Shown here piece after piece: positions 22,461 to 47,204 of a stretch of 64,000 nucleotides of DNA. Origin of the DNA: Methanobacteriota archaeon (GTDB taxonomy: Archaea > Thermoplasmatota > Poseidoniia > Poseidoniales > Thalassarchaeaceae); NCBI GenBank assembly GCA_002719615.1, contig PBHZ01000002.1, positions 49,007 through 113,006 of the forward strand. Direction: 5' to 3'. Position 1 is the first letter of the stretch, and every line of letters starts with the position of its first letter. The notes under the pieces are model-generated. The model saw only the letters and a program-made list of their open reading frames with translations, made no database searches and was not told the DNA's origin. The position numbers were made by a program, and so were the translations under genes.

Positions 22461-22481
22461 GTTGAGCCTTCAGGCTGCAAC
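22461..22481 (+). promoter_or_regulatory. 5'-leader stem-loop (8 bp with a 1-nt bulge, UUCA loop) immediately 5' of the GGTGA Shine-Dalgarno-like sequence of the aglB-giant gene
   Basis: GTTGAGCC-TTCA-GGCTGCAAC. Positions 61-64 pair with 78-81 and 65-68 with 73-76, with G77 bulged. GC-rich in an AT-rich spacer. Confidence 0.35.
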
Positions 22482-22496
22482 GCACGGTGATATAAT

Positions 22497-25400
22497 ATGG
22501 AAAAAAATGAAGAGGCGGCAAAAGGTAATTTCTTTTATCAAGATATTACTTCTGTTCCTATAATATTAGCTACGTTGATGGTGCTATATTTTGGAATCAG
22601 TTTTGCTGTCAATGGAGATATAGGAAATGAAGAATATATGAACGTCTTGATTCTACCTTTATCCGCTGCATTTGCATCGGCTATTGGTAGGATTAGTACA
22701 TCTCTGCAATTTTCCAAATCCAATACATTACAATCTTTTATCATTCCAATCACGATTGTAGCATTAGCTTTCACAATAGACTTTATAGCTAACTTCAGTA
22801 ATAATGTCTTTATTCTTACATTTACATTGGTTGGGCTAATGTCTATCCTTTTATCTAATTCTAATCGTATTGAAGAAAATAATCTTCTTCTTTCAACTGT
22901 GATAGGATTTCATCTTGCTATTTCTTATGCTTCTAGTTTAACTTTTGATCCTGGACTGGATATAGACTCTCAAAGAACCGATATTGGCATAGCCTTCATA
23001 TCATTCTGGTTAGCATCAATTTCTATTGGTTTTACCTTAGTTGGGTTTTTGAAAGGTGTAATCGATAAAGTTGGAAAAAATCCATTATTTGCAGATATAC
23101 CTATCTTTAAAGAAAATAAATCATTTGTAATATTTTCAAGTATAATTTCTATTGTATACATCATCCCTTTATTCCGATATGATAGTTTTGAAAGTTTAGG
23201 AGTTATATGGGCCGTATCTACAAGTTTAATAATTTTATTTTACGCATATTGTTATTTTGAAAAATGGCATGTTCTTGGTTCTTTGATTCTCGTCAATTGG
23301 TTTATCTTTACTATGGCCCATCTTCAAGAAATCGGTAATAATTTCTATCCAAGTATATTTGAAGAAGAAAGTTTCACAGGTGCATTTTCTTGGTTCTTCA
23401 TAACATTCTGGCTAAACGTAGGAGCAATCACTCTATCTTCAAAAGGTTTCTTTGGAGATATAGCACCAAGAAGAAGTCCAAGTAAATTTAGAATGTGGTG
23501 GGATTCAAATTATTATTCAATTCTAATTCCACTTTCTTTTATCGTCGCTTTGACAGTCAGGGTCGTTTGGAATGTCATACCTGCAATGAATGCACCAGGT
23601 ACAGGAACCTGGGATATGTCCGGAGGTTCAGATCCTTGGTACATGAAGCGTATAGTTGACTATATTTTAGCCAATAATAGCCATCTCATTTTTGATGCCG
23701 ACAGAGCATATCCAATGGGTGCAATAAATCCTAGACCTCCACTTTTCACATGGTCTTTGGCATTGGGTGGTATGGGATTATCGTGGATTCTTGAATCTGA
23801 TAATACTGGCGAAGTTGTTTGGTGGAGTCTCGCTTCTCTGCCAGCTATTTATGGGGCTTTAGTGGTTTTCCCTGTGGCAGGAATAGCCAATAGAGTACAC
23901 GGTAAAAAGGCCGCTATCATTACCGCTTGGCTTATTGCTTTGATGCCAGGACACATTAGTCGTTCAACATTCGGAATGGTAGATCACGACTCTTTTGCAA
24001 TTTTACTCTTGTCAACGGCATTTTACTTTTGGATTAAATCTATTTCTAGCATGAATCAGGAGCGTATTTTCCAAAAAACATCATCAAATCCTCTATATTT
24101 GTTTGCTGGAATAAGAGAGACCTGGCGCAGGAATCCTAAGGTAATGTCCAATGCTACTTTAGCAGGAATCGCTTTCGCCGTTATGGCTTTGGGTTGGAAA
24201 GGTTTCGTTTATGGCCCTGGAATCCTGTTTCTTGTATTTTCACTACAGGTCTTTTTCAATCTATTTCGTTCCAAAGATAGTCTACAACTCACGGCTGCAA
24301 GTTTGCAAATGTTATTTACAGTTCTTTTGATACCTTTGCCGTTTTATGCATGGCCTGGTTTAAATTTGGTTTTGGATCCTAGTGGATTACAACCTTTGTT
24401 CTATATAATCGGTTTTACGTTACTTCTTGGTTGGACATCTTGTTCCTTTAGAGACAAGCCGTGGTTACTTGTTTTAGGTGTTGGTGCTATCCTAATATCT
24501 CTAACACTGGCCTCATTGTATTTATTGCAAGAAGCGAATTTATATGCCGGATGGGACATACTTTTCTCTGGTGGTTTTTACTTTGATAAAAACAAAATCT
24601 TCGGGACAATTGGTGAAGCTCAAGCACCTAGTAGAGGAGTTTTATTCGCATCATATGGTCCAATTGTAGCATTAATAGGATTAGGTTGTGCTTTTGTTTT
24701 CCTTTGGAGAGGCGCCAGAACAAACAAAATGGCATTTACTTTACTTGGCTCTTGGGGAATTATTTCCACCTATATGGCATGGTCTGCTGGGAGATTTATC
24801 ATTAACGCAACACCTGTGATGGCTATCTTGGGAGGAATAGGAATTGCAATGCTTTGGCAATCCGCTAACTTTGCTAACTTTTCCAAAGAATGGAGAAATT
24901 CGGGTATAGGTACTCCTCGTGCTAGATTTAATTCTCTTTGGCCTGCTACCAAGAGAAGTGTTGGAGTACCCGTTTTGATGGTTGTCTTCATGCTAGTTTT
25001 TACTCAACATGTGACTTATGGTATTGATTCAGGGATACCTAGGAACTCACAATCTGCAACAGACGTTGATAAAGCCATTTACGACATAACTCCAGATATT
25101 TTAAGGGAAAATTTACTAGGCGAATTCTCTATACTTGGTGGAGGAGATTATGATCCTTCATCAGTCAATGGGTTGGAATATATGGGTACTTTTGGCCCTA
25201 GTTTTAATTCGTATGGTTGGAATGACGCATATGCATGGTTAGAAGAACAAGATAGGGATAAAGGATTTAGTAATCGTCCAGCATTCTTATCTTGGTGGGA
25301 TTATGGATTTAGTGCCTTAGCACAAGGGCAGCACCCAACTGTAGCAGACAATTTCCAGTCAGGAATACCGCATAGTGGAGGTATGCTTCTATCTCAAGGT

Positions 25401-32177: not shown

Positions 32178-32211
32178 AATCACCAGTGATTACGGATGCG
32201 TATGATTTATT

Positions 32212-33450
32212 ATGACACAAAGTTTTGATAATTTAGAGCTTCTACCAGAGCCTGAAGATCCAGATATTCTGACTGCTATTGACAAGAATGCACCAGGATA
32301 TCCGGGCCAGCTTTATGGGGTAAGCGATAAAGATGCAAAGATTTTACGTAGATTTTTTGTGCCTGTAAAACGCTTTATTTGGCCTTGGGGGGCGTTAGCG
32401 TTCACATTTTTTACTGCCTTTCTTATAGTTGGATGGCCATTTATTGATGCCTTCCTTTCTCCATATCTTCCAGATTCTGAATGGGCGTATGAAGATACAG
32501 GGATCAGAGAAATACAGAATATGGGCTATTTGGGAGAAGGCATAAGAGTCTGTATGGTCGATACAGGGATAGATCTTAATCACCCAGATTTAATGCATAT
32601 TTCTTTATCTGGATTCAGAGATTTCTACTATAATGATCATTCTGATATTAGAGATATAGGGGATAATTTTCACGGGACTCTGATGTCTGGTATATTACTA
32701 TCAAATGGAACATTCATTGGAGCGGCTCCAAAAATCTCTCTATCTGTTGCAATATCTCTAGGGCCTTCAGGAAAATCTGGTCAAGAAGATATGGTTTCAC
32801 AGGCGATAAGATGGTGCAGAATTTCGCAAGATGCAGATATTATCAGCTTAAGTCTTGGAGCTAACCCAGGAATGGGAATGGATGATGAATCTGAGACAGT
32901 CATTGCAGTTCAAGAAGCATTAGATGCTGGTATCTTTGTAGTTGCTGCTGCAGGAAACACTGGACTAGATGAAGAAATAACAGATGTTTCCATCCCTGCC
33001 AATATTGAGGGCGTTATTTCAGTAGCTGCAACAAATAAAAATGGTAATATTTGGAAAAATAGTGCAATCGGATCATCTATAGATTCATATACGGGAGAAG
33101 AAAGACTCTTCCCAAATCAAAAACCAGAAATTTCTGCCCCGGGTGTCAGACTGTATTCTACATATTCATCTAGTTCAGATTCTTCTCTTTATGCTTATTC
33201 TTCTGGTACTAGCGATTCAACGGTTTTGGTTACAGGTGCCTTAGCATTAATTTTGGAGAGATATTACGAAGATATTGCTGGAGAAGATGGTAAAATAGAT
33301 TACTCAGAAATCAATCGAGTTAAGTTAGCATTGGCAAATTCAGCAATTTCTGATGATAAAAACATGCCTCATCATCCTCAAAAAGGATATGGTAAATTAA
33401 ATGCTATTTCTTGGTCCGATGAAATTAAAATTGAGTTCGGTGTCGAGTAA
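32212..33450 (+). CDS. Membrane-anchored subtilisin-family (S8) serine protease
   Basis: Catalytic triad contexts VCMVDTGIDLNHPDL (Asp), HGTLMSGIL (His) and SGTSDSTVLVTGALALI (Ser). N-terminal TM WGALAFTFFTAFLIVGWPF. Confidence 0.9.
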   Translation: MTQSFDNLELLPEPEDPDILTAIDKNAPGYPGQLYGVSDKDAKILRRFFVPVKRFIWPWGALAFTFFTAFLIVGWPFIDAFLSPYLPDSEWAYEDTGIREIQNMGYLGEGIRVCMVDTGIDLNHPDLMHISLSGFRDFYYNDHSDIRDIGDNFHGTLMSGILLSNGTFIGAAPKISLSVAISLGPSGKSGQEDMVSQAIRWCRISQDADIISLSLGANPGMGMDDESETVIAVQEALDAGIFVVAAAGNTGLDEEITDVSIPANIEGVISVAATNKNGNIWKNSAIGSSIDSYTGEERLFPNQKPEISAPGVRLYSTYSSSSDSSLYAYSSGTSDSTVLVTGALALILERYYEDIAGEDGKIDYSEINRVKLALANSAISDDKNMPHHPQKGYGKLNAISWSDEIKIEFGVE

Positions 33451-33540
33451 ATAATTTAAAACATAATATTCTCTGTAATATGACATTCTCACATTGCCAT
33501 TACTCCTATCTTTAAATGAACACAACACTCCTCAAACATT

Positions 33541-36500
33541 ATGAGGGAGCGCTTTAGAGTGAGTATTATGAGTAACAATGTAAGGTCAAGAAGTTCGTTT
33601 CTAGTTTTCTTAATGATTTCTAGCCTTCTAGTTTCATTTATCGGTCCAGTTTCTACAGTTTCTGCCTCAAACGAAACCTCTGTGGGGACAATTACCGGTA
33701 CTGAAACATGGTCTGGGCTTCATCAATTAACTGGAGATGTTACAATTGCAACAGGTGCGCAATTAATCATCAATCCAGGCACAACTATCTCTGCATCCAA
33801 TGGAACGCATATTGATGTAAGAGGGAGTATTTGCATAGGTGAAATCAGTTGCGGTGCTAGTTCTAATGCTAATCCAAGTCAAAAAATAACATTCCAATGG
33901 TCTAATCCAGTCAATGAAAGTGCTACAGGCGATTGTCTCGATCTAGAACAAAATGGACAAAAGATTACGGTTACAGACCCCTCTTGTTACGAGGGTATCC
34001 TTATCAGGAGTTCTATTGACTTGTCATTAACCGGCATCAGATACTTGGTAATGGATGGGGCTTATGGTGTCCCTCATTTTATTGATGCCGTAAATGAATG
34101 GAGATATGGAGCACTGGTTATTGACGGAGCTAGTCCTGTTATCACAAACATAGATTTCAATGATATCAACACTTCCAGTGTTTTAACAACCAGTCTCGCT
34201 CAACCTACATTTATCGATAGCTCATTTTCCGTAGGTAATGATGATGAAAGTGGAGTTGGTGGTTCTGCAATGCAAATTTATGCATCTGGATCTTCAGTAG
34301 CACCATTTACATTAGATAATCCATATTTCAAAGATGGAACAGAAAGAGGTTGTGAACAAAACGCGGGCGGACGTTCTGCAATGTGGATACAGGATTCTTT
34401 TGTTGATATCGATAATGCTGATATTCAATTCGGAGACTATGGATTATCAATTCGAAACTCAGCCGGGGAAATATCAAATTCAGTAATTTCAGTTACTTGC
34501 ACAGGCGTAGGGATTCAAGGTAAAAGAACTGTAAGTTCCAACTCTTTTCCATTTGACGTACTCAACAATGAGATTACAACTGATCAAGGAGGACCAATAG
34601 TAGTTACTTCCCAAGGCTTAACAAATATAATTTCAAATGAAATTTCAGGATCTAGTCAGGGTTCGGGAATAGTTGTAGTTGCCAGTCAGGCAGAAATACA
34701 CAATAATGAAATCGGCCCAATTGGAGGTTGGAATGGAATATGGTTACGAAGTACATTTGATGTAGTTGTCGAGAATAACAGTATTGCAGAAACTAATGCT
34801 GAACCAATTGTTGCAGGTAGTTATTACTATTCGGATACAGCCATATCACGTTTATACCTTGCAAATAATGAAATTTCAACGGATGGTACTGGAACGTGTT
34901 CAAGCAATAAGTGGTGGGGCGGTGAATTTGCATGTCCTGCTGTAATGATATTCAGAACAGGAACAACTATTCATGATAATGATATTTCAGCCGGTGCTGC
35001 AAATGGAATTATGGCTATTGGGTCATTGTTAGATGTACAAAGAAATACGTTCGATGGGGCATCAACAGGTGCGGTAATAAAGAATTATGATGATGGCGCT
35101 TTAGGAAGTCAACAGTATGGTTCTCTGGCATTTTTTGCTGAAAATACATGGTTAAATGTTGAAAAGACTTACAATATTACGAAGAGTTCTGTAACTGTTC
35201 AATCTGAGTCAATACCTAGTGCGCCTTCCGGTGAGCATCCGGTTCGTCTCTCTTGGCCGGATCAAGAAGCATGGTCATACAATAATTTTCAAACATCAAT
35301 AGTCCCTCCTCCAATAAAAAATTGTCCTGCTTGTGATGAGATATTACCCAGAAACTTTCCTTTGGCAATTAGTATGGACAATAATTCTACTGTATTTACG
35401 TTTTCTAATCTGACTAATCTAGATACCGATAATATCTTTATTGAAACTCAACCAACACACTATGCAGTTCAAGTCAGCCGTGCAGAATTAGTACGATTAC
35501 AAGCACTTATCAACGGTCTAAAGGTATCTGAAGCTTTGGTTTTGATAGAAGATGCACTAGGAAATGATTTGTATTCTCTAATTACCGATGAAAATGGATA
35601 TACTCCCTGGTTTTCTTTACCTTCCAATTTCCATCTTGACTTCAGAGGACTGGGTGGCGGAGATAATCCGGATGGCTTCGCTGATGATGAATACGAAGAC
35701 TCATGTTTCGATGGCATAGATAATGATGGTGATTTGACTCTAGACATGGATGATTCTGATTGTGACTACTCACAGGGAACTAGGGAACTTTCACGTTACT
35801 TCTATACAATATACAAATTTGATGCAGGTTATAAAACCGGAGAATTTACACTCGATGAATCAACATATCAAGACTCTATAGAATTAGAAAATATCGCACC
35901 GACCGTTTCAATAACTCAAGATGATTATCATTCCTACAGAAATATCGTAAATATAACTGGAAGTGCGCATGATGGTATCTTATCCAACGCATATGCAACT
36001 GATGAACTCGCACAGTGGAGTCAGAGAGGTTATGTACACAGTGTAGAAGTCAAGAATCCATTTACAAGTTCATGGGAAACTGCTTCTCTTGCAGTAGATG
36101 ATAGCGGCGCTGATCCTGCTAAAGTAACAAGGTTTAATCATCCATTCAAAGATTGGTATTATGAACTTGATATGTCAGATAAACAAGAAGGCAATTATCT
36201 GTTTGAATTCCGTGCCTTCGATGGTACTGATTACAGTCCAGTTGTTTCTAAATTAATTAAGTTAAACACCGAAGCACCAACTATCTTAGTAACCAATCCT
36301 AGTTCACTTTCCACACATTCTGATGGTACAATTCATTTCGAAGGTTATGCATCTGATTCATACGGTTGTGATATTGGAGAATGTAACAAAGATATTGATA
36401 AAATCTATCTCTTGATTGAAGGGCCATCCATTGGCGATATAGATGGTGATGGGGAAGACGACTCATTTAGGATGCCAGTCCCAGTAGATGCAAGCGAAAT

Positions 36501-37878
36501 GGGCGAAGATGGTTATTGGAATTGGACATGGGATTTTAATTCACGACCACGTGAATCTGCAGAATACACTGTAACAATCTGGGCTTCGGACTCTGACTTT
36601 TGCATTGGGGTGATAGATGTATGTCAAGCATATACATTGTCACTAATTGTTGATAATACTAACTTAGCACCAATTATTAATATTAATCAACCTGTAAATG
36701 GTATGCGTTTATCAGTTTCAGATTCAAATCTTGTTAGTGGTGTTGCTAGAGACTTCGATGGAGATATTTCTAGAGTGGAAATAGAAGTAAAAGATATTGA
36801 ACGAGATTTTATGATAGTTGCAGAAAAAACTATTATCGACTTCTCTGAAAATGGTGAATGGAATTGGACATGGGATACAACTAACTTGTTAAGACATGAC
36901 TCATCATATTTGTTGAGGTTTAGATCATATGATGGTTACGATTACAGCACATGGACTTCAATAGAGATTATCGCTGATAATCCTCCAGGTAAAGATAATA
37001 CCCAGCCAATATTTAGTGCTGATGGCTGGATAGAAAATATTGTTTTGTATTGTGATACCATATCTAAAGCATCAAACAGATGTACTACTGGGGAAATTAA
37101 TTTATTTGATTATTTTAGTGATTTAGAAGATAATATTGAATATATTTCTGTATTCAATAACGATGATTTACCCTATGATGATAATTATGGAATAGTTGTT
37201 AAGGTTTCTAATTCCGGAATCGCAACTTACAATCCGACTGATATGAATTATTATGATACTGATATATCAACTTGGTCACTTCCCAATGTAATATTCGAAG
37301 CCACTGATTCTTTGGGGTCTAAGATAAACTCTAATCCAGTTTCTTTTGAAGTAAAGCCTATCCAGTTTGTAATCTCAGAACCTGATAGTAATTCAGTTGA
37401 TGATGAAGGAGTTGTAGTCTATTCTGGAGTTGGATTACCTGGTCAAAAGGTATCCGTGATAATTAATGGTAATCAGATAAATAGTACAATTGTTTCTTCT
37501 AATTCAACATGGGAATTGGGAGTCCCCGGTTCTAGAATCTCTGGTTCTTCAGTCACTCCTTCGTTTGTGATGGGGGGACAAGATCCTGTTATTGTTGAAA
37601 CAATCTACAAAGGCACTCAAGAAGAGAGTGGTTTCCCAACCGGGATTGTCATTGGTTTGGTCATAGTAATATTATTAATTAGTGCTTTTGGATATTTCTT
37701 TGTAGAGTTAGAAACAGATGAACAACCAAAAACGGATATTGAAGTGAATAAAAATTTCGGCCTTGAAAACCAAGTAGAAACAGATTCAAATAAACTTGAG
37801 AAACATGAAGATCACCCAGGATGGTTATGGGATCCAGAAAAAGAAGAATGGATACCAGACCCAGATCATTCTTGGTAA
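33541..37878 (+). CDS. Giant surface protein (1445 aa): signal peptide, right-handed parallel beta-helix (PbH1) repeats, Ig-like modules, C-terminal TM anchor with Trp-rich acidic tail
   Basis: Signal FLVFLMISSLLVSFIGPVSTVSA. Successive beta-helix rungs: VLNNEITTDQGGPIVV, ISNEISGSSQGSGIVV, IHNNEIGPIGGWNGIWL, VENNSIAETNAEPIVA, IHDNDISAGAANGIMA. TM IVIGLVIVILLISAFGYFFV. The start could instead be ATG 33568. Confidence 0.8.
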   Translation: MRERFRVSIMSNNVRSRSSFLVFLMISSLLVSFIGPVSTVSASNETSVGTITGTETWSGLHQLTGDVTIATGAQLIINPGTTISASNGTHIDVRGSICIGEISCGASSNANPSQKITFQWSNPVNESATGDCLDLEQNGQKITVTDPSCYEGILIRSSIDLSLTGIRYLVMDGAYGVPHFIDAVNEWRYGALVIDGASPVITNIDFNDINTSSVLTTSLAQPTFIDSSFSVGNDDESGVGGSAMQIYASGSSVAPFTLDNPYFKDGTERGCEQNAGGRSAMWIQDSFVDIDNADIQFGDYGLSIRNSAGEISNSVISVTCTGVGIQGKRTVSSNSFPFDVLNNEITTDQGGPIVVTSQGLTNIISNEISGSSQGSGIVVVASQAEIHNNEIGPIGGWNGIWLRSTFDVVVENNSIAETNAEPIVAGSYYYSDTAISRLYLANNEISTDGTGTCSSNKWWGGEFACPAVMIFRTGTTIHDNDISAGAANGIMAIGSLLDVQRNTFDGASTGAVIKNYDDGALGSQQYGSLAFFAENTWLNVEKTYNITKSSVTVQSESIPSAPSGEHPVRLSWPDQEAWSYNNFQTSIVPPPIKNCPACDEILPRNFPLAISMDNNSTVFTFSNLTNLDTDNIFIETQPTHYAVQVSRAELVRLQALINGLKVSEALVLIEDALGNDLYSLITDENGYTPWFSLPSNFHLDFRGLGGGDNPDGFADDEYEDSCFDGIDNDGDLTLDMDDSDCDYSQGTRELSRYFYTIYKFDAGYKTGEFTLDESTYQDSIELENIAPTVSITQDDYHSYRNIVNITGSAHDGILSNAYATDELAQWSQRGYVHSVEVKNPFTSSWETASLAVDDSGADPAKVTRFNHPFKDWYYELDMSDKQEGNYLFEFRAFDGTDYSPVVSKLIKLNTEAPTILVTNPSSLSTHSDGTIHFEGYASDSYGCDIGECNKDIDKIYLLIEGPSIGDIDGDGEDDSFRMPVPVDASEMGEDGYWNWTWDFNSRPRESAEYTVTIWASDSDFCIGVIDVCQAYTLSLIVDNTNLAPIININQPVNGMRLSVSDSNLVSGVARDFDGDISRVEIEVKDIERDFMIVAEKTIIDFSENGEWNWTWDTTNLLRHDSSYLLRFRSYDGYDYSTWTSIEIIADNPPGKDNTQPIFSADGWIENIVLYCDTISKASNRCTTGEINLFDYFSDLEDNIEYISVFNNDDLPYDDNYGIVVKVSNSGIATYNPTDMNYYDTDISTWSLPNVIFEATDSLGSKINSNPVSFEVKPIQFVISEPDSNSVDDEGVVVYSGVGLPGQKVSVIINGNQINSTIVSSNSTWELGVPGSRISGSSVTPSFVMGGQDPVIVETIYKGTQEESGFPTGIVIGLVIVILLISAFGYFFVELETDEQPKTDIEVNKNFGLENQVETDSNKLEKHEDHPGWLWDPEKEEWIPDPDHSW

Positions 37879-37978
37879 TTGCATTACAAAATTTTTTGGT
37901 TAAATATGTTGTCAATTTAAAAAATGCATGAATCTTTTCTCACCAACATTATTGAATGATGATTCGGGTTGACCGGCT

Positions 37979-40507
37979 ATGCCAAGCGTGCCTACAACCC
38001 GCCCTGGAGTTCAAGAAAGGATTTTTCTTCATCTAAGGGACTTTGTAGATCATTCAGGAAAGGTAGAAGTGCCATTTGCATTATCTCAAATGGGTATTGC
38101 TAATGCTGTTGCAATAGCTAGATCAAATGTTCCGAGAGCCATAGCAGGTATGAAAGATAATGGCCAATTAATAGAGAGACAAGCACATGTCGCTGGTGTA
38201 TCAAGAAAAAGAAAGGCGTATTTTTTAACTTCAGAGGGTGCTAAAATCGCTGATGAAATTTGGGCCAAAGTTTCCCAACAGACTGTTAGGTTAATTCTTC
38301 CAGATGGGCGCTCTGAAGATGTCGCTTTGTCGGATGCTGTAGAAATGTCAGATTTACCCCTGCGTCATGTTGACATATTGAGATATATGGATGAGAATGG
38401 TTCAGTGGACCTCTCTTCTCTATCTCCTGATTTAATTGAGAGAGATTTATCAAAGCATATTGAAAAACAACTTGTTTCTTATCTCAATGATATTCCAAGA
38501 ACTAGGAGATTCTTCGGTCGAGAGAAAGAACTTGATAATATGGTGGCCCTTCTAGAATCCAAATCAAACTCAATCTTAGTTCCTGGTATTGCAGGAATAG
38601 GAAAAACTGCTTTAGCAGCTAAATTATTAGAAAAATTTACCCACAGGAGAAATTTATTATATCACCGATGTCAAGATTGGGAAGGTTCTCGTTCATTCCT
38701 TGAAGCCTGTGCGGAATGGCTATCGGCAATAGGTGATAACAATCTTTCAGATTATATTGCTTCAACTCCAGTTCCACAATCTTCTATCGCTGTCAATTTA
38801 ATTTCTCAAGGTCTTATGGATTCTCCTGCTTTGATAGTAATAGACGACTTACATAAAGTAGGAGATGAGTCTTTGATTTCTCTTCTAAGGGGATTGACTC
38901 TCAGAATATCTAATCTAAAAGAAGTTGGATTGGTGATGTTTTCAAGATCATTTAGGATGGTTGTACCAGAATCTGATTCAAGTGGTCAAATTGTTACTTT
39001 AGTTATACCTCTTGAAGGTCTCGATGAAGACTCAAGTAAACAAATATTGACTACTATGCCAAATCTTGAAAACCAACAATTTATGCATATTTTTACACTT
39101 TCGAGGGGACATCCTCTTATTCTCGAGCTAATTAATAGAGGTAATGTTGGTGAAAAATTTCATTCAACATTAGAAGCCTTTGTAGATCAAGAAATTTTTA
39201 GTCGACTTTCAGGCTCTGAAAAAAGGTTATTGGGTGCAATAGCAGTATTCCGCGAACCAATCATTCTTGAAGCAATTAATTCTATTGAAAGTGAAACAGA
39301 TATGTTAGATGAATTAGTTGAAAAAGGCCTTGCTAGACAATCCGATGCAGAATCTTACGATGTTCACGATCTCGTTCGTGAATTTCTTGTAAGATCTATG
39401 GAAGAATCATTACGTCACGAATTACATTCCAATGCTGTTGAATGGTATAGGAATAAATATGAAAGTGCCGCTGATAGAATTGAATACATTCACCATTTAC
39501 ATTTCTCAGAGAATAATGAAGAATTGTCAAAGGTTTTGATTTCTGAAGGGCATGATTTAGTTAAAGCTGGCCATACTGAATTATATTCAATATTAAAATC
39601 ATTAGAATCAGAAGATTTTGAAAACAATAGTTGGGGATTGATAAGGGAATTAAGAGGTAATATTCTTTCAATTCAGGGTCACTGGGACGAAGCGGAAATA
39701 GAATATGATGCTGCAATGAGAAGTATTGGTAAAAATAAGATGATTTCAGAACTGTCTCGCCTTCTTTCGGCTAGAGCCGATATTGCTGTGAAGCGAGGAG
39801 CAATGGATGATGCTTTGGAATTACATAGAAAGGCATTGGAAATTCAAATATCAATCAGGGATGCAGTAGGGGCAGCAAAATCATATAACAATATGGGTTA
39901 TATTTTTAGAAGAAGGAAAGATGTTAGACACGCATTAGAAGTGTATGGTAATGTAGAAGATTTACTTAAATCTGAGAATAATCCGGAATTATGTGATGCC
40001 CGTATCCGTCTGTCTTCTGCATTTTTGGAAATGGGAGAGTTAGATAGGTCCAGAGAACACGCATTACTTGCTTTCGAAGAAACTGACAATAATGGCCAAG
40101 CATTTCTTCACGCTAGATCGAGAGCAGTACTTGGTAGATATTATGCCAAAGTTTCTGATAACGAGTTAGCTCTACATCATTACTCGGGGGCTTTAGAAGA
40201 ACTATCCAAGCAAGATGATCCTAGAAGCGTTGTGGAGGTATCTTTGCTTCTAGGGCAAGTATTGATGGATGCAGGTAGAAATGAAGAAGCAGCTAATCAT
40301 TATCTTGGAGGATTAGCCGTTGCGGAAGCAAATGATTTCCGTATGATGCAGGGAGAACTATTATCTAGGCTTGGAGAAGTTGAAACTGATCGTTCACAAA
40401 GAATGAATTATTTACAGAGTTCATTATCTGTTTTCAGAGAATTAGGAGCAGTAGATAGGATGAAAGATGTTCAAAATTCAGTTCATAGGGCAATAATGGG
40501 TCATTAA
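37979..40507 (+). CDS. STAND-class NTPase: N-terminal MarR-like winged helix, NB-ARC-like P-loop ATPase, C-terminal TPR array (putative signal-sensing transcriptional regulator)
   Basis: wHTH: ALSQMGIANAVAIARSNVPRAIAGMKDNGQLIERQ...RKAYFLTSEG. Walker A VPGIAGIGKTALAAKL, Walker B ALIVIDDLHKV, and an NB-ARC GxP-like SRGHPLILELI. TPR-like repeats (AAKSYNNMGYIFRRRKDVRHALEVY and others). Confidence 0.8.
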   Translation: MPSVPTTRPGVQERIFLHLRDFVDHSGKVEVPFALSQMGIANAVAIARSNVPRAIAGMKDNGQLIERQAHVAGVSRKRKAYFLTSEGAKIADEIWAKVSQQTVRLILPDGRSEDVALSDAVEMSDLPLRHVDILRYMDENGSVDLSSLSPDLIERDLSKHIEKQLVSYLNDIPRTRRFFGREKELDNMVALLESKSNSILVPGIAGIGKTALAAKLLEKFTHRRNLLYHRCQDWEGSRSFLEACAEWLSAIGDNNLSDYIASTPVPQSSIAVNLISQGLMDSPALIVIDDLHKVGDESLISLLRGLTLRISNLKEVGLVMFSRSFRMVVPESDSSGQIVTLVIPLEGLDEDSSKQILTTMPNLENQQFMHIFTLSRGHPLILELINRGNVGEKFHSTLEAFVDQEIFSRLSGSEKRLLGAIAVFREPIILEAINSIESETDMLDELVEKGLARQSDAESYDVHDLVREFLVRSMEESLRHELHSNAVEWYRNKYESAADRIEYIHHLHFSENNEELSKVLISEGHDLVKAGHTELYSILKSLESEDFENNSWGLIRELRGNILSIQGHWDEAEIEYDAAMRSIGKNKMISELSRLLSARADIAVKRGAMDDALELHRKALEIQISIRDAVGAAKSYNNMGYIFRRRKDVRHALEVYGNVEDLLKSENNPELCDARIRLSSAFLEMGELDRSREHALLAFEETDNNGQAFLHARSRAVLGRYYAKVSDNELALHHYSGALEELSKQDDPRSVVEVSLLLGQVLMDAGRNEEAANHYLGGLAVAEANDFRMMQGELLSRLGEVETDRSQRMNYLQSSLSVFRELGAVDRMKDVQNSVHRAIMGH

Positions 40508-41314
40508 TCATAAAACTCTGATTCTTTCTTCATCCTGTTGACCTAGATAGTGACTAAATTCCGGTCCTATTTGTCTAGAGATGGCTATATTTCCATTATA
40601 TTTATCTCCAATATGGTATAATACTTCACTTTCTGCAAGGTGAGGCGCATTGTTTTTATCTGATAAATGACATAGAACTATACTCTCTAATTTTGTATGC
40701 ATAACTTCAGAAAGTAATTTACCTGTTTGAAAATTAGATAAGTGCCCACCCCTGCCAGAAATTCTTCTTTTCAGAGATTCAGGATAACTACTCATAAACA
40801 ATTTTTTTTGATCATAATTAGCTTCTATTGAAATATGTCTACATCCATCGAGATATTTTTTTAATTCTATTGTAGATTCTCCCAAATCTGTAAGAAAGGC
40901 AGCCTTTTCTCCTCTTCCACTGTTCGTAATAATTGCAACATTATCAGCTTTATCATGGGGAATTGGAACGCCTATAAAACTAAAATTATGACCACATTCA
41001 ACTATATCTAGGTTGTTAAAAGTCTTACATGTATTAATTGGTTCCCAGCCCATTTTTATCGCTGTTTGTATATTACAGTGTAATTCAGAGCCCCATTTTT
41101 TTGACGCCCTTTCTGCCGAGTTAGAATGATCTCCATGATGATGCGTCACAATAATTGAACTAATATCTCTTCCTTCCAGGCCAATACTTTTCAGTTTCTT
41201 TTCAGTCTGTAACAGTGAAAAACCACAATCGATTAAAATATTCTCATTATCAGTGCTCAATAGAGTAGCATTACCTTTACTACCTGACCCAAGATGAGTT
41301 ATTTTTAGGCTCAT
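40508..41314 (-). CDS. Metallo-beta-lactamase-fold hydrolase (YycJ/PhnP-like)
   Basis: HxHxDH motif IVTHHHGDHSN. N-terminal LGSGSKGNATLL..ILIDCG. Downstream His/Asp ligand positions (PHDKADN, CHLS). Confidence 0.85.
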   Translation of the reverse strand: MSLKITHLGSGSKGNATLLSTDNENILIDCGFSLLQTEKKLKSIGLEGRDISSIIVTHHHGDHSNSAERASKKWGSELHCNIQTAIKMGWEPINTCKTFNNLDIVECGHNFSFIGVPIPHDKADNVAIITNSGRGEKAAFLTDLGESTIELKKYLDGCRHISIEANYDQKKLFMSSYPESLKRRISGRGGHLSNFQTGKLLSEVMHTKLESIVLCHLSDKNNAPHLAESEVLYHIGDKYNGNIAISRQIGPEFSHYLGQQDEERIRVL

Positions 41315-41430
41315 GTTGTACCTAGCGGCATGTATCTTGGTCTATGAATAAATGGTTTTTTTTAATACTTAATTATAGTTTTTTTATTGTTTTAATATAT
41401 CTTCAAAACATTTATTTTTTCTTTCTGTCC

Positions 41431-41444
41431 GAACTACGCTCCAT
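41431..41444 (+). promoter_or_regulatory. Conserved 14-nt upstream element GAACTACGCTCCAT, copy 2 (52 nt from its end to ATG 41496)
   Basis: Identical to 3316-3329. It lies in the divergent spacer between the MBL hydrolase and the 1902-aa TSP3 giant. Confidence 0.4.
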
Positions 41445-41495
41445 CAGTATGATAAATCACTTTACTCTGCTAAATCTGTTAATCGGTGAGTATCA

Positions 41496-44400
41496 ATGCG
41501 TCGCAAACAGATAAGTGCCTTATTATTATCCTTCCTCATGTTGGCTAGTTTGGCATTTGTATCGCAGACAAGGCCACAGTCATCAGTTTCATCTATTGAT
41601 CCAAATGTAGCGGAGGGAGGGGATCCTCCAATCACAGATCAAGATGGAGATTTAATACCAGATATGCATGAATTTATTTTCAGTGAGGATATTAATCTCC
41701 AAATTAATACTTTTAATTTGATTATAGAAGGATTAGATTCTTACAATGCAACCGATAATGTAACCGATCGAGATAAAGATGGCGCTTCTGCTTTAATGGA
41801 ATATTGTTGGCCCTTTACTTTGGATGCTTGTTTGGATTCTGAAAAAAGAAACTCATTAACTGGTAAATCACCAGAGGAATCAATTTCCGGATTAAGGGAA
41901 TATTTAGACCCACGTATAGCAGATACTGATGGAGATGGATTGCCCGATGGTTATGAAATATATATGTGTACCAATGGAGGAGTTGGTTCTATTAACCCAC
42001 TAACAAATGCTTGGGATTGTTTATATTTTGACCCTCTAGATCCTAAAGATTTGGTGGATGATTTTGATAGATGTGAAATAGATTTTACTTGGGGTTGTGG
42101 AGACGGATTTGATTTTAATAAAGATGGTATTATTGATATAGGCGAGAGGTTCACCAATACCGAAGAGTATCTTTATGGCTCTCCTGAAGATTGGGTTACC
42201 GAAAGAGATGGCCTTTGGTGTGTTGGAGATATTCAAGGATTATCACCATCTTGTCAAACTGAAGTTCAAAGAGCTACATTAGATGATGGTTGGCTAGGTA
42301 CAGATCCAAGATTTGCAGATTCAGACTATTATGTATGGTCTGATTTTGAAGCTTTAGAACTCACCTCACTTGGAGATGGAATACCCGATGGTTGGGAGGC
42401 GTATAATGGACTTGATCCTAGAAATTCCTCTGATGCAATTACGGATTTGGACTCTGATGGTTGGGATGAGAACAGAGATGGTTACATAACTCCTGATATA
42501 ACAATCTCAACATCTCACTGGGGTGAAGAATTTAGTAATTATGAAGAATATTTAGTTGATTCAGATTCAGGCTTTGGCGTCATACCAGGAGTAACTGGGG
42601 CAAGAATCAATTCTGCAGATGGAGAATTAATTTCTTTGAATTATAAATCCGATGTAGAATTTGTTGATACCTCAATCCATAAAATAATTGCTGATTCTCA
42701 AAGAGATAGATTACTTGTAGGTTCTAAATACGGCATTACAGTAATAGATCCTTTTAGAAATACATCATCATTATTTCCTTTGGAGCATGGTACAGAAATG
42801 AATGTCATGGAGAAATATGAGTTAGGAGAAAAAAGTTACTTATTTTTTGGAACTAATAAGGGGTTACACACAATCCAATTAGATAATGGATTGCCTGTTA
42901 CTGAATCTGAAAAAGTATTTACTTTAGACTCCATAGAAATAATTACTAAACTACAAACACAGAGTGATAATTTGAATTTATTAATTGCTAGTGATACCAA
43001 GATATGGACAATTCAATTATCTGAAGATTTTGAAGATTCAGTTGAAGATGTTAAAATAGATTATTTAACTAAGGTTTCTAATTTAATTAATCACGAAAAT
43101 GCATCTATAACTACATCCGTCCATGTTGAGATGCAAGGGCGAATTCCTATACTATTCGTAGGTACTGATTCTGGTTTAATCGCTTGGAATACTACAGATG
43201 GAACAAATTCTATTGGAAATCCTTATTGGGTATTCAACAGAACTAATGCTGAATATTTTATAAATGAGAATATTTATGATCCCACAGCTACTCCTAGAGT
43301 AAATATTTTACAAAAGGAAGAAAATGATGGTGCAACTCCTGGTCTATGGCTTGGCATGTCGGGAGGTCTTTATCTCGTCGAATTGGATATTATAACTTCT
43401 CAACCCACTGAAGCATTCAATAGTGACAGGATGTTAAACATAGAAAATATTCTAGATGGCGCTAATGATATCAGATCTGTATTTTCATACCAGGGAATGG
43501 TTATAATTGGGTCATCATATGGCTCATGGTGTCTAGAAGGTAACGCTCAAGATGGTATCCTTGGCATGTATCTAAATCAAACTAGGATTCCTGGCTTAGT
43601 TACCTCATTTGCAATGATTGAAAATCAAGGACAAGAGTGGATTTTTGCTGGCATTTCTCCAGGAAAATATATGAATATCGCTTCATTAAATCCATTATCA
43701 AATGACTCCGATTTAGATGGTATGAATGATGGTTGGGAGTTTATCAATGGTTTAGATCCCACAGATCCATTTGATGCAGCGAGGGATCCTGATTATGATG
43801 GAGTTAGATATTTCACAGAAGAAGGAGTATTATTTGATCGATTGTGGACTAATTTGGATGAATATAGATTTAGTTCAATTTCTGATTCTGGAGTAAATAG
43901 TACAGATCCTAGGCAAATGGACTCAGATGGAGATGGACTAACTGATGGAGAAGAATATTGGGGTTGGTTTACTGATTCAACCATTTTTGAATGCCACTAT
44001 ATAAATAAAAATTATATCTGTGATGAAGAAACTGGTATTGATGCTCTCAAAGTTCACATGGAAGGGTGGCTTGGTTCAGGTACTGGAGGAGGAACAGATG
44101 GCCCTACAGATCCCACTAATCCAGATTCAGATGGAGATGGTATGCCAGATGGATGGGAAATAGAAAACAGAAGATGGATAGGCGATACTTATACAGGTGG
44201 TAATTCTTGGTCTTTAGATCCCAGAAATCCTTTAGATGCAGATCAGGATGCAGATGGTGATGGTTTGAGTAATTTATGCGAATATAAGTGGAGTAATTTA
44301 CTAGATTTAACTCTACGAGAAGGTTTGGATAGTCATGGTGAATCTGCTGAAGCTGCTCTAAATTGGTCTCGTACAGATCCTAATTCGATTGATTCTGATG

Positions 44401-47204
44401 GAGATACGATACCAGATGGATGGGAAGCTAGATATAAGTGCAGTTGGTCTCCTAGGAATGCAGGTATAAACCCCCTAAATGGGTCAGATTATTTGAGTAA
44501 TCCAGATGGTGATGGGTATGATGTTAATCATAATGGAGTATTAGAATTAAATGAACAATTAGTTAATTGGATGGAATATTATTTGATGTCAGATATTCTG
44601 TACCAATCTAGTACTTCTTCTGGAATATCTTATCCTGATAATTTCTCAACACAGCTATCTCATGAATCATGGGAAGGATTAGCTGACACTCCTTTTGGCG
44701 ATCAATCTACTGTATTTTATTCTTTTTTGGTCGATGGTATGATTCCTTCAGACTTAGGGACATCTGATCCATTAAAGGCTGACTCCGATAGAGATGGTAT
44801 GCCAGATGGTTGGGAGTTTTACCATGCTAGGTGGAGTATTTTTGATCAAAAATGGTCATTAAATCCTGTTAATGAAAAAGATAATTTAGAAGACTATGAT
44901 GGAGATGGAATGAATAATTGGGAAGAATATAACTCAATTTCAACTAATTTAAGTGAAAATGATAATTCTATATCTTCTCCTCAGTTTTTCTTAATGAGCG
45001 TCTTAGGTGAAATAACTCCTGTCCCTTGGATAGGGGCTGAATCAGCATTATCTTTTGGAGACTTTATTTCGGAAGAACAAATAAATTTAACTGGCCTTAC
45101 TACAGATCCCAATAATCCAGATTCTGATGGCGATGGTATTTTAGATGGCATAGAATTACTATTCACTCAGTGGAACTCAACAGATCAAGTCTGGACTCTT
45201 AATCCCTTGGTCCCTGGGGATGGGTATTATGATTCTGACAATGATGGTATAACCGATATTGTAGAATTAAATATGACAAATAATAATCCTGTAAATGGCG
45301 GATTGTCTCCTTATGACGCTCCTAAATTCTGGGATGAAGCAAATTCAATAGATAATCAAGAATCGATAAATAGAATTTACAGAATAATATTTTCCAAAGA
45401 AGGTCGTGCCGATTTGGCCATGGAGCAATTTGTAGATTGGGAGTCTGGAAAACCAGCAAAACCACTATTGGAATCAATATTTGGAATTACTGATCCTAAT
45501 TCTCAAGACACAGATAGAGATGGTATGAGTGATGGTTATGAATATTGGTTCACAGAGTGGAATCTTGAAAATAATTCATGGTCTATGAATCCGTTAACTG
45601 ATTACGATGTAAATTTTGACTCTGATCAAGATTCTTTTGATTGTAATGGAGATGGTGAAATATCTGATTCAGAATCTTTCGATAATTTGGCGGAATACGA
45701 TTCAAGAATATATGGCAAGAGACTTGCAATAGATACTATTCCAAATGGTTCTGGTCTTATTTCATATGGTTCGGATGCAATTACTGCTCAAATTGAAGAG
45801 AATGGACTCTCTCATTCGGCTGCGAAAAGTATTCTATACACTTTGTTTTCTTCGAAGAGTATTTCTTCATCAGAAAAAATTGGTCTGATAAATGAGGTTG
45901 ATCCTAATAATTTCAATATAAGTTTGGCAGGTATTAGTGACCCAAATGATGCCGATTCAGATAGAGACGGCATGCCAGATGGTTGGGAGTACTGTTATTC
46001 TATTTATGGTGAATTTTTACCTGTAAATGCTTATCGCTGGTCATTGAACCCACTAAACCCATTGGATATCTCTTATGATCCTGATTCAGATGGGTGGTAT
46101 GATAGATCGTTCGATGATACTCCTGCAACCCAAGGAAAATGGGTCGATCGACAATTTATCCAAGATTCTGATGAAAATCAGCTGGACTCCGGAGTTTTAG
46201 AGTTATATTTCAATAATTTAATGGAATATGAAAATGGTACTCATCCTCTAGATGATGATTCAGATGATGATTCAATTATCATGATTCCGATTTTTGAGAA
46301 TGGTTTTGTAACAAATTATATCAGAGACAGTAGTCTTTCTGATGGGCGTGAAATTTTCAAATATGGAACAAACCCACTTGATAATGATACTGATGGTGAT
46401 ATGATGCCAGATTTTTATGAATATTCAAGAGGATGGAATGAGACTAATGATAATTGGTCCTCTTATCTACAAATTGCTGTGGAATGGTATCAAGTATCTT
46501 CTACCAATTGGAAACCAGTAGATGTCTCAAAAGGTTACATTTCTAGGCCTTCTTTAAACTGGACATGGTTTACTCACGACCCGACTAATCCAAATGATGC
46601 GGGCCAAGATGCAGATAATGATGGAGATTGGGTCTGTTCTTCTGGCTCGTGTATTTATCAACCATATACTAACTTCCAAGAGTATTATGCAACAGTTAAT
46701 GCGACCCTTTCCTCACCTTCTCTTGTTCGTGCCGCTAATTTATATGATTGTTCAGGAAATATTGTAGAAGAATGGTGGCAACTCAGAGAATCCTTGCTAG
46801 GAACTTGCTCGGGGAATACTGCAATTTCTACCAATTATTTACGTATGAATAGAATTAGTGAAACTGATTCTCTTTATGCTTTAGTGATTAATGACAATGA
46901 CGAAAACTATGAAATTATTAATGCATCCGATGATATAATTCTAACAAATGGAGCTTGGACAGATCAATACAATAGATTTGCTGGCGATCAGTACCATCTA
47001 CCAAATATCGGACTTGGTGAATATGTATTTGGCTGGTGGAATCTAGATTTAGATGGAGACATGATTGCCGAAGGAACAGATCCAAAAAATTGGGACACTG
47101 ATGGAGACTGGCTTAATGACTATTTTGAAATTAATGATGATTTATTAGACGGAATTAGAGGAAACAGTGGCTCACCAATAAGATATGATGATAGAACAAC
47201 ATAG
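41496..47204 (+). CDS. Giant secreted protein (1902 aa): signal peptide, TSP-type-3-like Ca-binding repeats, embedded Reg_prop-like beta-propeller, long array of DxDxDG..W(S/T)(L/M)NP modules, no C-terminal TM anchor
   Basis: Signal ISALLLSFLMLASLAFVSQ. Repeats DTDGDGLPDGYE, DSDGDGMPDGWE, DSDRDGMPDGWEF and others. Propeller-like blades LLVGSKYGITVIDP, LFFGTNKGLHTIQL, LFVGTDSGLIAWNT, LWLGMSGGLYLVEL. SD-like GGTGA lies 6 nt upstream of the ATG. Confidence 0.85.
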   Translation: MRRKQISALLLSFLMLASLAFVSQTRPQSSVSSIDPNVAEGGDPPITDQDGDLIPDMHEFIFSEDINLQINTFNLIIEGLDSYNATDNVTDRDKDGASALMEYCWPFTLDACLDSEKRNSLTGKSPEESISGLREYLDPRIADTDGDGLPDGYEIYMCTNGGVGSINPLTNAWDCLYFDPLDPKDLVDDFDRCEIDFTWGCGDGFDFNKDGIIDIGERFTNTEEYLYGSPEDWVTERDGLWCVGDIQGLSPSCQTEVQRATLDDGWLGTDPRFADSDYYVWSDFEALELTSLGDGIPDGWEAYNGLDPRNSSDAITDLDSDGWDENRDGYITPDITISTSHWGEEFSNYEEYLVDSDSGFGVIPGVTGARINSADGELISLNYKSDVEFVDTSIHKIIADSQRDRLLVGSKYGITVIDPFRNTSSLFPLEHGTEMNVMEKYELGEKSYLFFGTNKGLHTIQLDNGLPVTESEKVFTLDSIEIITKLQTQSDNLNLLIASDTKIWTIQLSEDFEDSVEDVKIDYLTKVSNLINHENASITTSVHVEMQGRIPILFVGTDSGLIAWNTTDGTNSIGNPYWVFNRTNAEYFINENIYDPTATPRVNILQKEENDGATPGLWLGMSGGLYLVELDIITSQPTEAFNSDRMLNIENILDGANDIRSVFSYQGMVIIGSSYGSWCLEGNAQDGILGMYLNQTRIPGLVTSFAMIENQGQEWIFAGISPGKYMNIASLNPLSNDSDLDGMNDGWEFINGLDPTDPFDAARDPDYDGVRYFTEEGVLFDRLWTNLDEYRFSSISDSGVNSTDPRQMDSDGDGLTDGEEYWGWFTDSTIFECHYINKNYICDEETGIDALKVHMEGWLGSGTGGGTDGPTDPTNPDSDGDGMPDGWEIENRRWIGDTYTGGNSWSLDPRNPLDADQDADGDGLSNLCEYKWSNLLDLTLREGLDSHGESAEAALNWSRTDPNSIDSDGDTIPDGWEARYKCSWSPRNAGINPLNGSDYLSNPDGDGYDVNHNGVLELNEQLVNWMEYYLMSDILYQSSTSSGISYPDNFSTQLSHESWEGLADTPFGDQSTVFYSFLVDGMIPSDLGTSDPLKADSDRDGMPDGWEFYHARWSIFDQKWSLNPVNEKDNLEDYDGDGMNNWEEYNSISTNLSENDNSISSPQFFLMSVLGEITPVPWIGAESALSFGDFISEEQINLTGLTTDPNNPDSDGDGILDGIELLFTQWNSTDQVWTLNPLVPGDGYYDSDNDGITDIVELNMTNNNPVNGGLSPYDAPKFWDEANSIDNQESINRIYRIIFSKEGRADLAMEQFVDWESGKPAKPLLESIFGITDPNSQDTDRDGMSDGYEYWFTEWNLENNSWSMNPLTDYDVNFDSDQDSFDCNGDGEISDSESFDNLAEYDSRIYGKRLAIDTIPNGSGLISYGSDAITAQIEENGLSHSAAKSILYTLFSSKSISSSEKIGLINEVDPNNFNISLAGISDPNDADSDRDGMPDGWEYCYSIYGEFLPVNAYRWSLNPLNPLDISYDPDSDGWYDRSFDDTPATQGKWVDRQFIQDSDENQLDSGVLELYFNNLMEYENGTHPLDDDSDDDSIIMIPIFENGFVTNYIRDSSLSDGREIFKYGTNPLDNDTDGDMMPDFYEYSRGWNETNDNWSSYLQIAVEWYQVSSTNWKPVDVSKGYISRPSLNWTWFTHDPTNPNDAGQDADNDGDWVCSSGSCIYQPYTNFQEYYATVNATLSSPSLVRAANLYDCSGNIVEEWWQLRESLLGTCSGNTAISTNYLRMNRISETDSLYALVINDNDENYEIINASDDIILTNGAWTDQYNRFAGDQYHLPNIGLGEYVFGWWNLDLDGDMIAEGTDPKNWDTDGDWLNDYFEINDDLLDGIRGNSGSPIRYDDRTT
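41637..42480 (+). repeat. TSP-type-3-like Ca-binding repeat block I of the 1902-aa protein
   Basis: DQDGDLIPDMHE ... DTDGDGLPDGYE ... LGDGIPDGWE ... DLDSDGWDENRDG. Confidence 0.65.
43700..47140 (+). repeat. TSP-type-3-like repeat block II, organised as a higher-order module (DxDxDG-MPDGWE - Trp-rich linker - W-S/T-L/M-NP)
   Basis: At least eight successive modules, e.g. DSDRDGMPDGWEFYHARWSIFDQKWSLNP, DSDGDGILDGIELLFTQWNSTDQVWTLNP, DTDRDGMSDGYEYWFTEWNLENNSWSMNP, DSDRDGMPDGWEYCYS...YRWSLNP. Confidence 0.7.

Follow-up and report, generated by a model that had tools for sequence, protein, structure and literature searches.

A core locus of Poseidoniales in which a giant AglB oligosaccharyltransferase adjoins single-copy surface proteins and a candidate STAND regulator

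We analyzed a 64-kb stretch of DNA (hereafter, the window) from a metagenome-assembled genome (MAG) of the family Thalassarchaeaceae (Marine Group IIb, MGIIb, order Poseidoniales; genome of 1.67 Mb in 30 contigs, ~88% complete), in which the gene for a giant AglB-type oligosaccharyltransferase is followed by genes encoding a subtilase, two very large surface proteins and a STAND-type regulator. In our judgement this stretch is probably a vertically inherited, order-specific core locus, which unites the sole N-oligosaccharyltransferase of the genome with single-copy surface proteins and a cytoplasmic sensor-regulator, and we infer from it a functional coupling of glycosylation, proteolytic maturation and STAND control. 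In such a system AglB, held in the membrane at both ends, would glycosylate its sequon-rich neighbours as they emerge, and the signal-anchored S8 subtilase would trim or release envelope proteins. The transmembrane (TM)-anchored beta-helix protein and the secreted, Ca-binding protein of 1,902 amino acids (aa) would be structural or adhesive parts of the MGII envelope, and the winged helix-turn-helix (wHTH)-STAND-TPR protein would sense a ligand via its TPR domain and control transcription.

This region was first described, in an earlier note made from the sequence letters, as a co-directional surface-glycoprotein module. Our list of open reading frames (ORFs) reproduced exactly the coordinates and strands given there for all six genes, and also the spacers of 34, 90 and 100 nt, and Pfam, NCBIfam and PDB searches upheld all the domain assignments. 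The plus strand carries the giant AglB (3,226 aa; 22497–32177), the signal-anchored S8 subtilase (412 aa; 32212–33450), a beta-helix/Ig-like surface protein (1,445 aa; 33541–37878), the wHTH-STAND(NOD)-TPR protein (842 aa; 37979–40507), the secreted TSP3/propeller Ca-binding giant (1,902 aa; 41496–47204, here the 1902-aa protein) and p157, a small helical cytoplasmic protein of 157 aa (47241–47714). The gene for a metallo-beta-lactamase (MBL)-fold hydrolase (40508–41314, minus strand) abuts the STAND gene end to end, and is convergent with it and divergent from the 1902-aa gene. The surface ORFs listed in the note occupy 57.3% of the window, in agreement with its figure of about 57%, and the beta-helix and 1902-aa proteins are indeed rich in N-glycosylation sequons. 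By a crude heuristic for surface proteins the window is the densest 64 kb of the genome (0.52; mean over the genome, 0.18). Public annotations of the genes of this block read hypothetical, "TPR protein" or even FtsY.

Gene order at this locus is conserved across the Poseidoniales. We surveyed 41 genomes from 18 genera and three families, with the downstream part of the locus sampled in 20 genomes and the upstream part in 11, and added 80 loci from independent assemblies, single-contig genomes included. AglB, the S8 subtilase, the beta-helix protein and the STAND protein each have one full-length orthologue in 41 of 41 genomes, in the same order and on the same strand wherever contigs allow. 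All 20 genomes sampled have the MBL gene and the 1902-aa giant gene downstream, and 19 have p157, which was not detected in G018. Among the 80 further loci the complete seven-gene array is present in 56 and the number of order violations is zero; the remaining 24 are without the terminal genes of the array, most probably because of contig or locus ends. The MBL gene keeps its position in 79 of the 80 loci, and p157 is present in 69 of them and occurs in three families. Upstream of AglB lies a 565-aa surface protein with a signal peptide and a C-terminal TM segment (18622–20319, minus strand), then carS and purD; an orthologue of the 565-aa protein occurs at the same place, as a conserved upstream edge, in 9 of 11 genomes (24–66% identity), with no orthologue detected in G031 and a partial match in G026. 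Lineages differ within the array solely in the presence or absence of a trio of pilin-like genes and one extra giant. In the single-contig MGIIa genome G026 the AglB and S8 orthologues are spread over several frames, with a run of N in the AglB region; since both genes are intact in its close relative G031, these broken frames look like sequencing errors of an older composite assembly and not gene decay.

Large clusters of surface-protein genes are often variable islands in other archaea, and the cell-wall island of Haloquadratum walsbyi is an example that resembles the present locus in being a dense cluster of giant surface-glycoprotein genes. The Haloquadratum island varies between strains, whereas the MGII block is invariant across the order. 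A hypervariable metagenomic island, or an assembly chimera of several populations, would not be expected to show the same order and content in 41 genomes and 80 loci; we found no break in GC or tetranucleotide usage within the cluster, both being uniform, and no 5-kb tetranucleotide distance in it exceeds the genome's 88th percentile. Because order is conserved so widely, the block is neither a variable island nor an assembly artefact, and conserved order together with uniform composition refutes that explanation, to which we give next to no probability. Of the suggestions in the earlier note, that of an organized cluster and not a random collection is borne out by the conserved order and orientation; its term "island", in the variable or mobile sense, gives way to that of a core chromosomal block with which the housekeeping flanks are conserved. 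It had seen its own reading as endangered by loss of linkage among relatives or by genes drawn from different assembled populations, but linkage is kept, the composition is unbroken and the same array recurs in single-contig genomes.

Comparison with the sister order, MGIII, separates the enzyme from its neighbourhood. MGIII has a giant AglB of ~2,300–2,390 aa with a C-terminal anchor, which does not contain the 338-aa N-terminal extension of the Poseidoniales protein. We found no S8, beta-helix or STAND gene near MGIII AglB and no orthologue of the beta-helix protein in MGIII, and homologues of the STAND protein occur there in one family only, at ~28% identity. Since MGIII has the giant AglB but not the block, the giant AglB is a class-level trait and the block an order-level invention. 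In five MGIII genomes (G048, G044, G057, G042 and G100) AglB has among its neighbours genes for a PGF-CTERM protein, an archaeal pilin and a giant of ~2,200 aa, all without homology to the neighbours of AglB in Poseidoniales.

The AglB protein matches Pfam STT3 (PF02516) at 60.2 bits, for a cut-off of 24.5, and at 66.9 bits when the whole genome was scanned, and it is the sole STT3 protein in the genome. Its STT3 core spans aa ~339–970, the alignment with Archaeoglobus fulgidus AfAglB (PDB 3WAJ) beginning at aa 339, and the catalytic motifs GGSDPWY (D373/D379), D496-H497-D498 and WWDYG (933–937) are all invariant among 10 orthologues from three families. No DK/MI motif was located in the external domain, which is divergent. 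Hydropathy analysis places ~13–16 TM segments within the first 840 aa and ~7 extra TM segments in the N-terminal extension (aa 1–338) ahead of the core. The ectodomain of ~2,200–2,350 aa contains one CarboxypepD_reg-like domain and otherwise no recognizable folds, and its profile found nothing in the PDB beyond the STT3 core. The protein ends in a TM helix 10 residues from the C-terminus, a short basic tail and an invariant terminal Phe. Orthologues of ~3,160–3,540 aa are present in 41 of 41 Poseidoniales genomes, with order-level identity of ~40% in the core and 27–33% in the ectodomain. AfAglB-L of A. fulgidus (3WAJ/5GMY) is likewise a single-copy enzyme with a 13-TM GT-C core, DXD-type motifs, WWDYG and an external catalytic domain, but the Poseidoniales AglB is ~4 times longer and differs in the N-terminal extension with its ~7 TM segments, the ~2,200-aa ectodomain and the second, C-terminal anchor. 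The agl cluster of Haloferax volcanii also places AglB in a conserved neighbourhood for surface glycoproteins. That cluster carries glycosyltransferase and flippase-related genes, whereas the neighbours of MGII AglB are candidate substrates, a protease and a regulator, so that the block lacks the flanking glycan-assembly genes that define an agl N-glycosylation cluster. Against the NCBIfam model for archaeosortase-associated STT3 (TIGR04154) AglB scores 168 bits, under the cut-off of 450. PGF-CTERM-type ends (LPGF/VPGF) are present in three proteins encoded elsewhere in the genome (C16:75682–78939, C18:133419–136514 and C19:17925–26213), and we rejected sorting of the cluster giants by archaeosortase A because none of the proteins of the cluster carries PGF-CTERM.

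The S8 protein, described in the earlier note as a membrane-tethered subtilase, was confirmed to combine an S8 domain (PF00082, E=1.3e-36 over 285 of 288 profile positions) with an N-terminal TM segment. The catalytic triad occurs in S8 order as D117 (MVDTGID), H154 (HGT) and S334 (GTS), and the protein consists of a 55-aa cytoplasmic head, one signal-anchor TM segment (aa 55–82) and an external catalytic domain, with no propeptide. The motif LPEPEDxxIL.AID in the N-terminal tail is kept in three families; order-level identity of the whole protein is 42%. Wherever the sequence is contiguous, the S8 orthologue adjoins AglB, the gap between them being -20 to 91 nt in the different families; here the 34-nt spacer leaves no room for a promoter, and S8 is probably co-transcribed with AglB.

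The beta-helix protein has Pfam Beta_helix and Big_7 matches, a signal peptide, a C-terminal TM segment and a 53-aa cytoplasmic tail. Full-length orthologues are present in 41 of 41 genomes at 38–93% identity (~38–39% at order level), and apart from the tail motif the protein has no paralogues in the genome. Despite whole-protein identity of ~38%, the tail keeps the motif (H/Y)PGW(L/R/K)WD...W(V/I)PD, in which G1427, W1428, W1430, W1437 and D1440 are invariant. A profile search against the PDB returned an Ig-like fragment only, and no match to a catalytic family was found in Pfam, NCBIfam or PDB profile searches. In the form (D/E)(E/H)(Y/H)PGWLWD...W(V/I)P(D/E), this motif occurs in the cytoplasmic tails of three TM-anchored giants, namely the beta-helix protein (tail at 37720–37878) and two others, and a second Trp-rich tail motif, PPLPxxGLPEGW(S/T)xEQWxxYG, occurs in two proteins of this genome and in the extra MGIIa giant; giants with Trp-rich tails are encoded at C7:86560–90999, C19:9079–12495, C1:43739–48511 and C18:172929–176360.

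The beta-helix fold is typical of carbohydrate-active enzymes, and the locus might be read instead as one for nutrient acquisition or particle attachment, with S8 as a feeding protease, the beta-helix protein as a polysaccharide-active protein or adhesin, the TSP3/propeller giant as an adhesin, and AglB adjacent merely by descent. Consistent with this, S08A peptidases dominate the peptidase transcripts of MGII and have been read as nutritional (PMC5069720), subtilases are among its highly transcribed genes (PMC9723583) and thrombospondin-type genes have been discussed as adhesion factors in Poseidoniales (PMC6461757). However, this S8 protein is membrane-tethered, has a conserved cytoplasmic tail and follows AglB everywhere at a distance of 24–91 nt, other S8 paralogues are available for feeding, and the beta-helix protein matches no catalytic family. 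We consider a feeding or attachment locus rather improbable.

The 1902-aa protein carries a signal peptide but lacks a membrane anchor, and its C-terminus, SPIRYDDRTT, is conserved. It contains ten exact DxDxDGxxD motifs of TSP3 type and a Reg_prop-like beta-propeller at aa ~330–700 (match to 4A2L, E=9.5e-7); matches to TSP3_bac and CglD/MtsD were sub-threshold, and its profile returned only the Reg_prop propeller from the PDB. Full-length orthologues occur in 20 of 20 sampled genomes at 36–86% identity (36–43% at order level). Its downstream neighbour p157 always follows the last giant gene, at a gap of 0–41 nt (here 36 nt, with no T-run between), and has a conserved C-terminus, PG(H/Q)LFSP(I/L)ELPE(D/N)(F/W); its AlphaFold model is confident (pLDDT 88, pTM 0.83), and no PDB fold match was found at E<1. 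An ORF for a 110-aa protein with two TM segments (47711–48043, minus strand), below our 150-aa listing threshold, overlaps the end of p157 by 4 nt; its position is kept in three families and its consensus reads ...FGVGAWG...YD(A)W(R)DA. Between the STAND and 1902-aa genes, the MBL-fold hydrolase is identified by Pfam Lactamase_B/B_2 and an HHHGDH motif. Elsewhere MBL heads an operon with three type-IV-pilin-like genes (361, 743 and 157 aa; 4-nt overlaps; class-III-type N-termini). This trio, with weak DUF7289/Pilin_N matches, lies between the STAND and MBL genes in MGIIa (G031 and G026), family f2 and some MGIIb genera. The same lineages have, ahead of p157, a further TM-anchored giant of ~1,800 aa whose tail is Pro-rich and Trp-rich. 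Both the trio and this giant are absent from the genus of the window, which has lost them.

The STAND protein, a candidate regulator in signal transduction, is the most conserved of the block, with 50–99% identity among orthologues and 52% at order level. It carries Walker A (GIAGIGKT) and Walker B (LIVIDD) motifs, and a profile built from 17 orthologues found PH0952 of Pyrococcus horikoshii (6MFV) as its best PDB match (E=2.6e-34, aa 173–491). Its AlphaFold model (mean pLDDT 69) shows the NOD, a second small domain and a TPR superhelix at aa 497–840 (pLDDT ~85–90), and the top Foldseek match was again PH0952, with LGN and Rap, TPR proteins that bind peptides, next in rank. This order, with a repeat sensor domain behind the P-loop NOD, is that of the MalT/PH0952 clade, and PH0952, MalT and AfsR all share it in the form of a NOD and then a TPR sensor superhelix. 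MalT and AfsR differ in their output domains, a C-terminal LuxR helix-turn-helix in MalT and a SARP domain in AfsR, and our protein, unlike either, has a ~170-aa N-terminal extension with winged-helix-like topology, in addition to the second small domain. Within this extension aa 11–98 are modelled as H-H-H-beta-hairpin-H with pLDDT of 41–77, aa 28–84 are invariant among the 17 orthologues, a Pfam match to PadR was sub-threshold (E=0.0057), and a profile of aa 1–172 found no solved relative among PDB sequences. DNA binding by this domain is plausible on the basis of the model.

Because the membrane-bound members keep short conserved segments on the cytoplasmic side, the conserved motifs of the S8 head, the beta-helix tail and the AglB terminal Phe, together with the p157 end, imply cytoplasmic partners. 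The TPR sensor of the STAND protein is, speculatively, one candidate for such a partner.

The block is not one operon; judged from the upstream regions, its likely transcription units are [AglB-S8], [beta-helix], [STAND], [MBL, on the other strand] and [1902-aa gene-p157]. Regulation looks mixed, which weakens the reading of one module and the suggestion in the earlier note of a possibly self-regulating island. In the promoter and leader region of AglB (22425–22496, plus strand), the BRE (B recognition element)/TATA-like sequence ACGAACGGTTAAAAC is followed by a leader of ~55 nt that includes a short GC hairpin, with GGTGAT as the ribosome-binding site; this layout (TATA-like box, (G)GTCAGGT(C/G)GCC-type stretch, hairpin, GGTGA/GAGGGA) is recognizable in 10 genomes from three families. 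The hairpin itself (22461–22481) is recognizable in several lineages and has four consensus pairs with one compensatory change (RNAalifold), a level of pairing support too weak for us to claim a structured RNA. A separate TATA-like box, CTTTAAAT, lies ~30 nt ahead of the beta-helix ATG, a T6 run comes after the stop codon of that gene, and upstream of the STAND gene is an A/T-rich region of its own. In MGIIa and some deep MGIIb lineages the 140 nt preceding the beta-helix gene contain 1–4 copies of TGATAC(A/T), with no such repeats in the f2 genome G027 or in the genus of the window. Sigma-70 and terminator scans are uninformative for an archaeon.

The spacer between the MBL and 1902-aa genes contains a promoter-proximal element (41427–41457, plus strand) with the box GTCCGAACTACGCTCCAT and then the TATA-like hexamer ATGATAAAT, 69 nt upstream of the 1902-aa gene. 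This 18-nt box, GTCCGAAC-NN-CGCTCCAT, i.e., GT(C/A)(C/T)GAAC-NN-(C/T)GCTCCAT, stands at a fixed distance from the TATA-like hexamer. Its CGCTCCA part is present in 75 of 75 Thalassarchaeaceae loci, in a spacer that is otherwise unalignable, and the box occurs at the same place in families f2 and f3, making it recognizable in all three families. A second copy, GTATGAACTACGCTCCAT (3312–3329, plus strand, found by genome pattern search), followed by CTTAAGA, lies 45 nt upstream of the gene for a 2,985-aa secreted giant (3357–12314, plus strand) with Pfam Transglut_core, TSP3_bac and DUF4129 domains and, like the 1902-aa protein, ten DxDxDGxxD motifs. The pattern GAACNNCGYTCCAT occurs twice in the genome, both times in the window, and with up to two mismatches allowed the 1.67-Mb genome has exactly three copies of the box, each of them 45–69 nt upstream of a gene for a giant exported protein: the 1902-aa protein, the 2,985-aa giant and a 1,371-aa protein on another contig (box at C9:55634). 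The reversed-control box gave two matches in the genome, neither of them upstream of a gene, and across the 41 genomes the core box pattern is ~9 times commoner than the reversed control. The box of the 2,985-aa gene is kept in families f1 and f2, and orthologues of the 2,985-aa and 1,371-aa genes are boxed in other genera and families. The MGIIa genomes G026 and G031 contain second copies of the 14-mer, which we judged to be chance matches because both the GTCCGAAC half and a downstream gene are lacking. Among these sequence patterns, the box is the strongest evidence of co-regulation in our analysis, and it ties the 1902-aa gene to giants outside the coordinates given in the earlier note; it is a candidate operator or activator site, and the 1902-aa-p157 unit likely belongs to a small box-marked regulon.

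Published expression tables include the orthologous locus. In the supplement of PMC9723583 it appears in a MAG of genus O1 as genes 302–311, in the same order and with the STAND gene mis-named FtsY, and genes 305–311 have similar, moderate metatranscriptome coverage. Over the two sample columns with appreciable counts, both from coastal metatranscriptomes, coverage was 0.35–0.38 for aglB, 0.16–0.19 for S8, beta-helix and STAND, and 0.07–0.10 for the 1902-aa gene, with ribosomal protein S15 at 0.5–1.4 for comparison. The DESeq table of the same study gives log2 fold changes of +2.05 for aglB (adjusted p=0.06), +1.91 for beta-helix, +1.05 for the 1902-aa gene and -0.05 for STAND. Co-expression had been proposed in the earlier note as a check; in this table aglB, beta-helix and the 1902-aa gene trend upward together, and STAND is flat. 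These values lend weak support to joint behaviour of the surface genes.

These values also bear on whether the locus might encode a two-component S-layer. In the Sulfolobales, slaA and slaB encode a large anchorless surface protein and its TM-anchored partner, both heavily N-glycosylated, and by the same logic the beta-helix protein would be the stalk (SlaB) and the 1902-aa protein the canopy (SlaA), with a glycosyltransferase and a protease dedicated to them. Two large glycoproteins, one anchored and the other anchorless, each single-copy, order-universal and sequon-rich, do lie beside the sole oligosaccharyltransferase. Unlike slaA and slaB, these genes are neither adjacent nor co-transcribed, since STAND and MBL lie between them and their promoters differ; no sequence similarity to known S-layer proteins was found in Pfam or PDB profile searches; and expression is ordinary, at ~0.1–0.2 against the level of S15. 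We regard an S-layer locus as improbable.

The box and the cytoplasmic motifs could also be joined in a more ambitious scheme, an outside-in envelope-sensing circuit that would tie production of the outer envelope components to the condition of the glycoprotein envelope, although we think it a very long shot. The STAND TPR domain would bind PGWLWD..WVPDP (in the beta-helix protein and two other anchored giants), LPEPEDxxIL (in S8) and PGHLFSPIELPEDF (at the p157 end), and through its winged helix the STAND protein would regulate the secreted Ca-binding giants that make up the GTCCGAAC-NN-CGCTCCAT regulon.

Several of our observations weigh against the reading of the locus as a functionally coupled unit. 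In a rival reading, slow rearrangement in a genome with many surface genes has simply kept AglB, S8, the giants and STAND together, and each acts independently. Synteny is high throughout the background: when 400 kb from a complete MGIIa genome were set against the present one, 105 of 190 adjacent orthologue pairs (55%) are kept between families, and collinear runs of 9–13 genes occur elsewhere. Since large surface-like proteins (at least 500 aa, crude heuristic) make up ~18% of genome DNA and 104 ORFs reach at least 800 aa (one of them 5,503 aa, on C30), chance adjacency of surface genes is common. Housekeeping genes are kept with the block, carS and purD upstream and p157 and a gene for an RNA-binding protein downstream, and unrelated genes (carS, purD, dnaJ and S15) lie within the conserved stretch. 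Because of this background synteny and these housekeeping genes, conserved linkage alone is moderate-to-weak evidence of joint function. In addition, promoter signals differ from gene to gene, and no box was found upstream of the AglB, S8 or beta-helix genes; no glycosyltransferase, flippase or sugar-biosynthesis domain is present in any ORF from 12315 to 57110; the DNA-binding role of STAND leans on a low-to-moderate-confidence model and the sub-threshold PadR match; and in the DESeq table aglB alone nears significance, STAND is flat, and transcript levels are ordinary and not S-layer-like.

Other features are harder to reconcile with synteny devoid of function. There are zero rearrangements in 41 genomes and 80 loci despite gene gain and loss inside the block, AglB-S8 spacing is tight everywhere, and in other lineages extra surface genes were inserted at exactly this locus. 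The giants of the block all have conserved single-copy orthologues and no paralogues in the genome, compared with 7 of 17 other large surface-like ORFs in the 400-kb MGIIa sample that have a full-length orthologue here; they do not belong to expanded families of adhesins. The tight AglB-S8 gap, the single-copy giants and the insertion of surface genes at two fixed points point to more than inertia. We consider independent action of these genes possible but on balance unlikely, and prefer the reading of an order-specific core locus with inferred functional coupling. Elsewhere in the window, two tRNA genes (153–234 and 60887–60961, both minus strand) are the sole Rfam matches.

MGII are among the most abundant planktonic archaea, are uncultured, and have a cell envelope that is uncharacterized. 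Our literature search turned up neither this arrangement nor the giant MGII AglB, and no paper in which AglB and MGII are named together. The locus gives a short list of universal, single-copy envelope candidates for MGII, and these adjoin the sole N-glycosylation enzyme, a doubly anchored fusion of ~3,200 residues whose giant form is common to MGIII. A conserved sensor-regulator comes with them, as does a promoter box, sharply defined, that three giant surface genes have in common. If true, the sensing circuit would operate in the most abundant archaea of the surface ocean.

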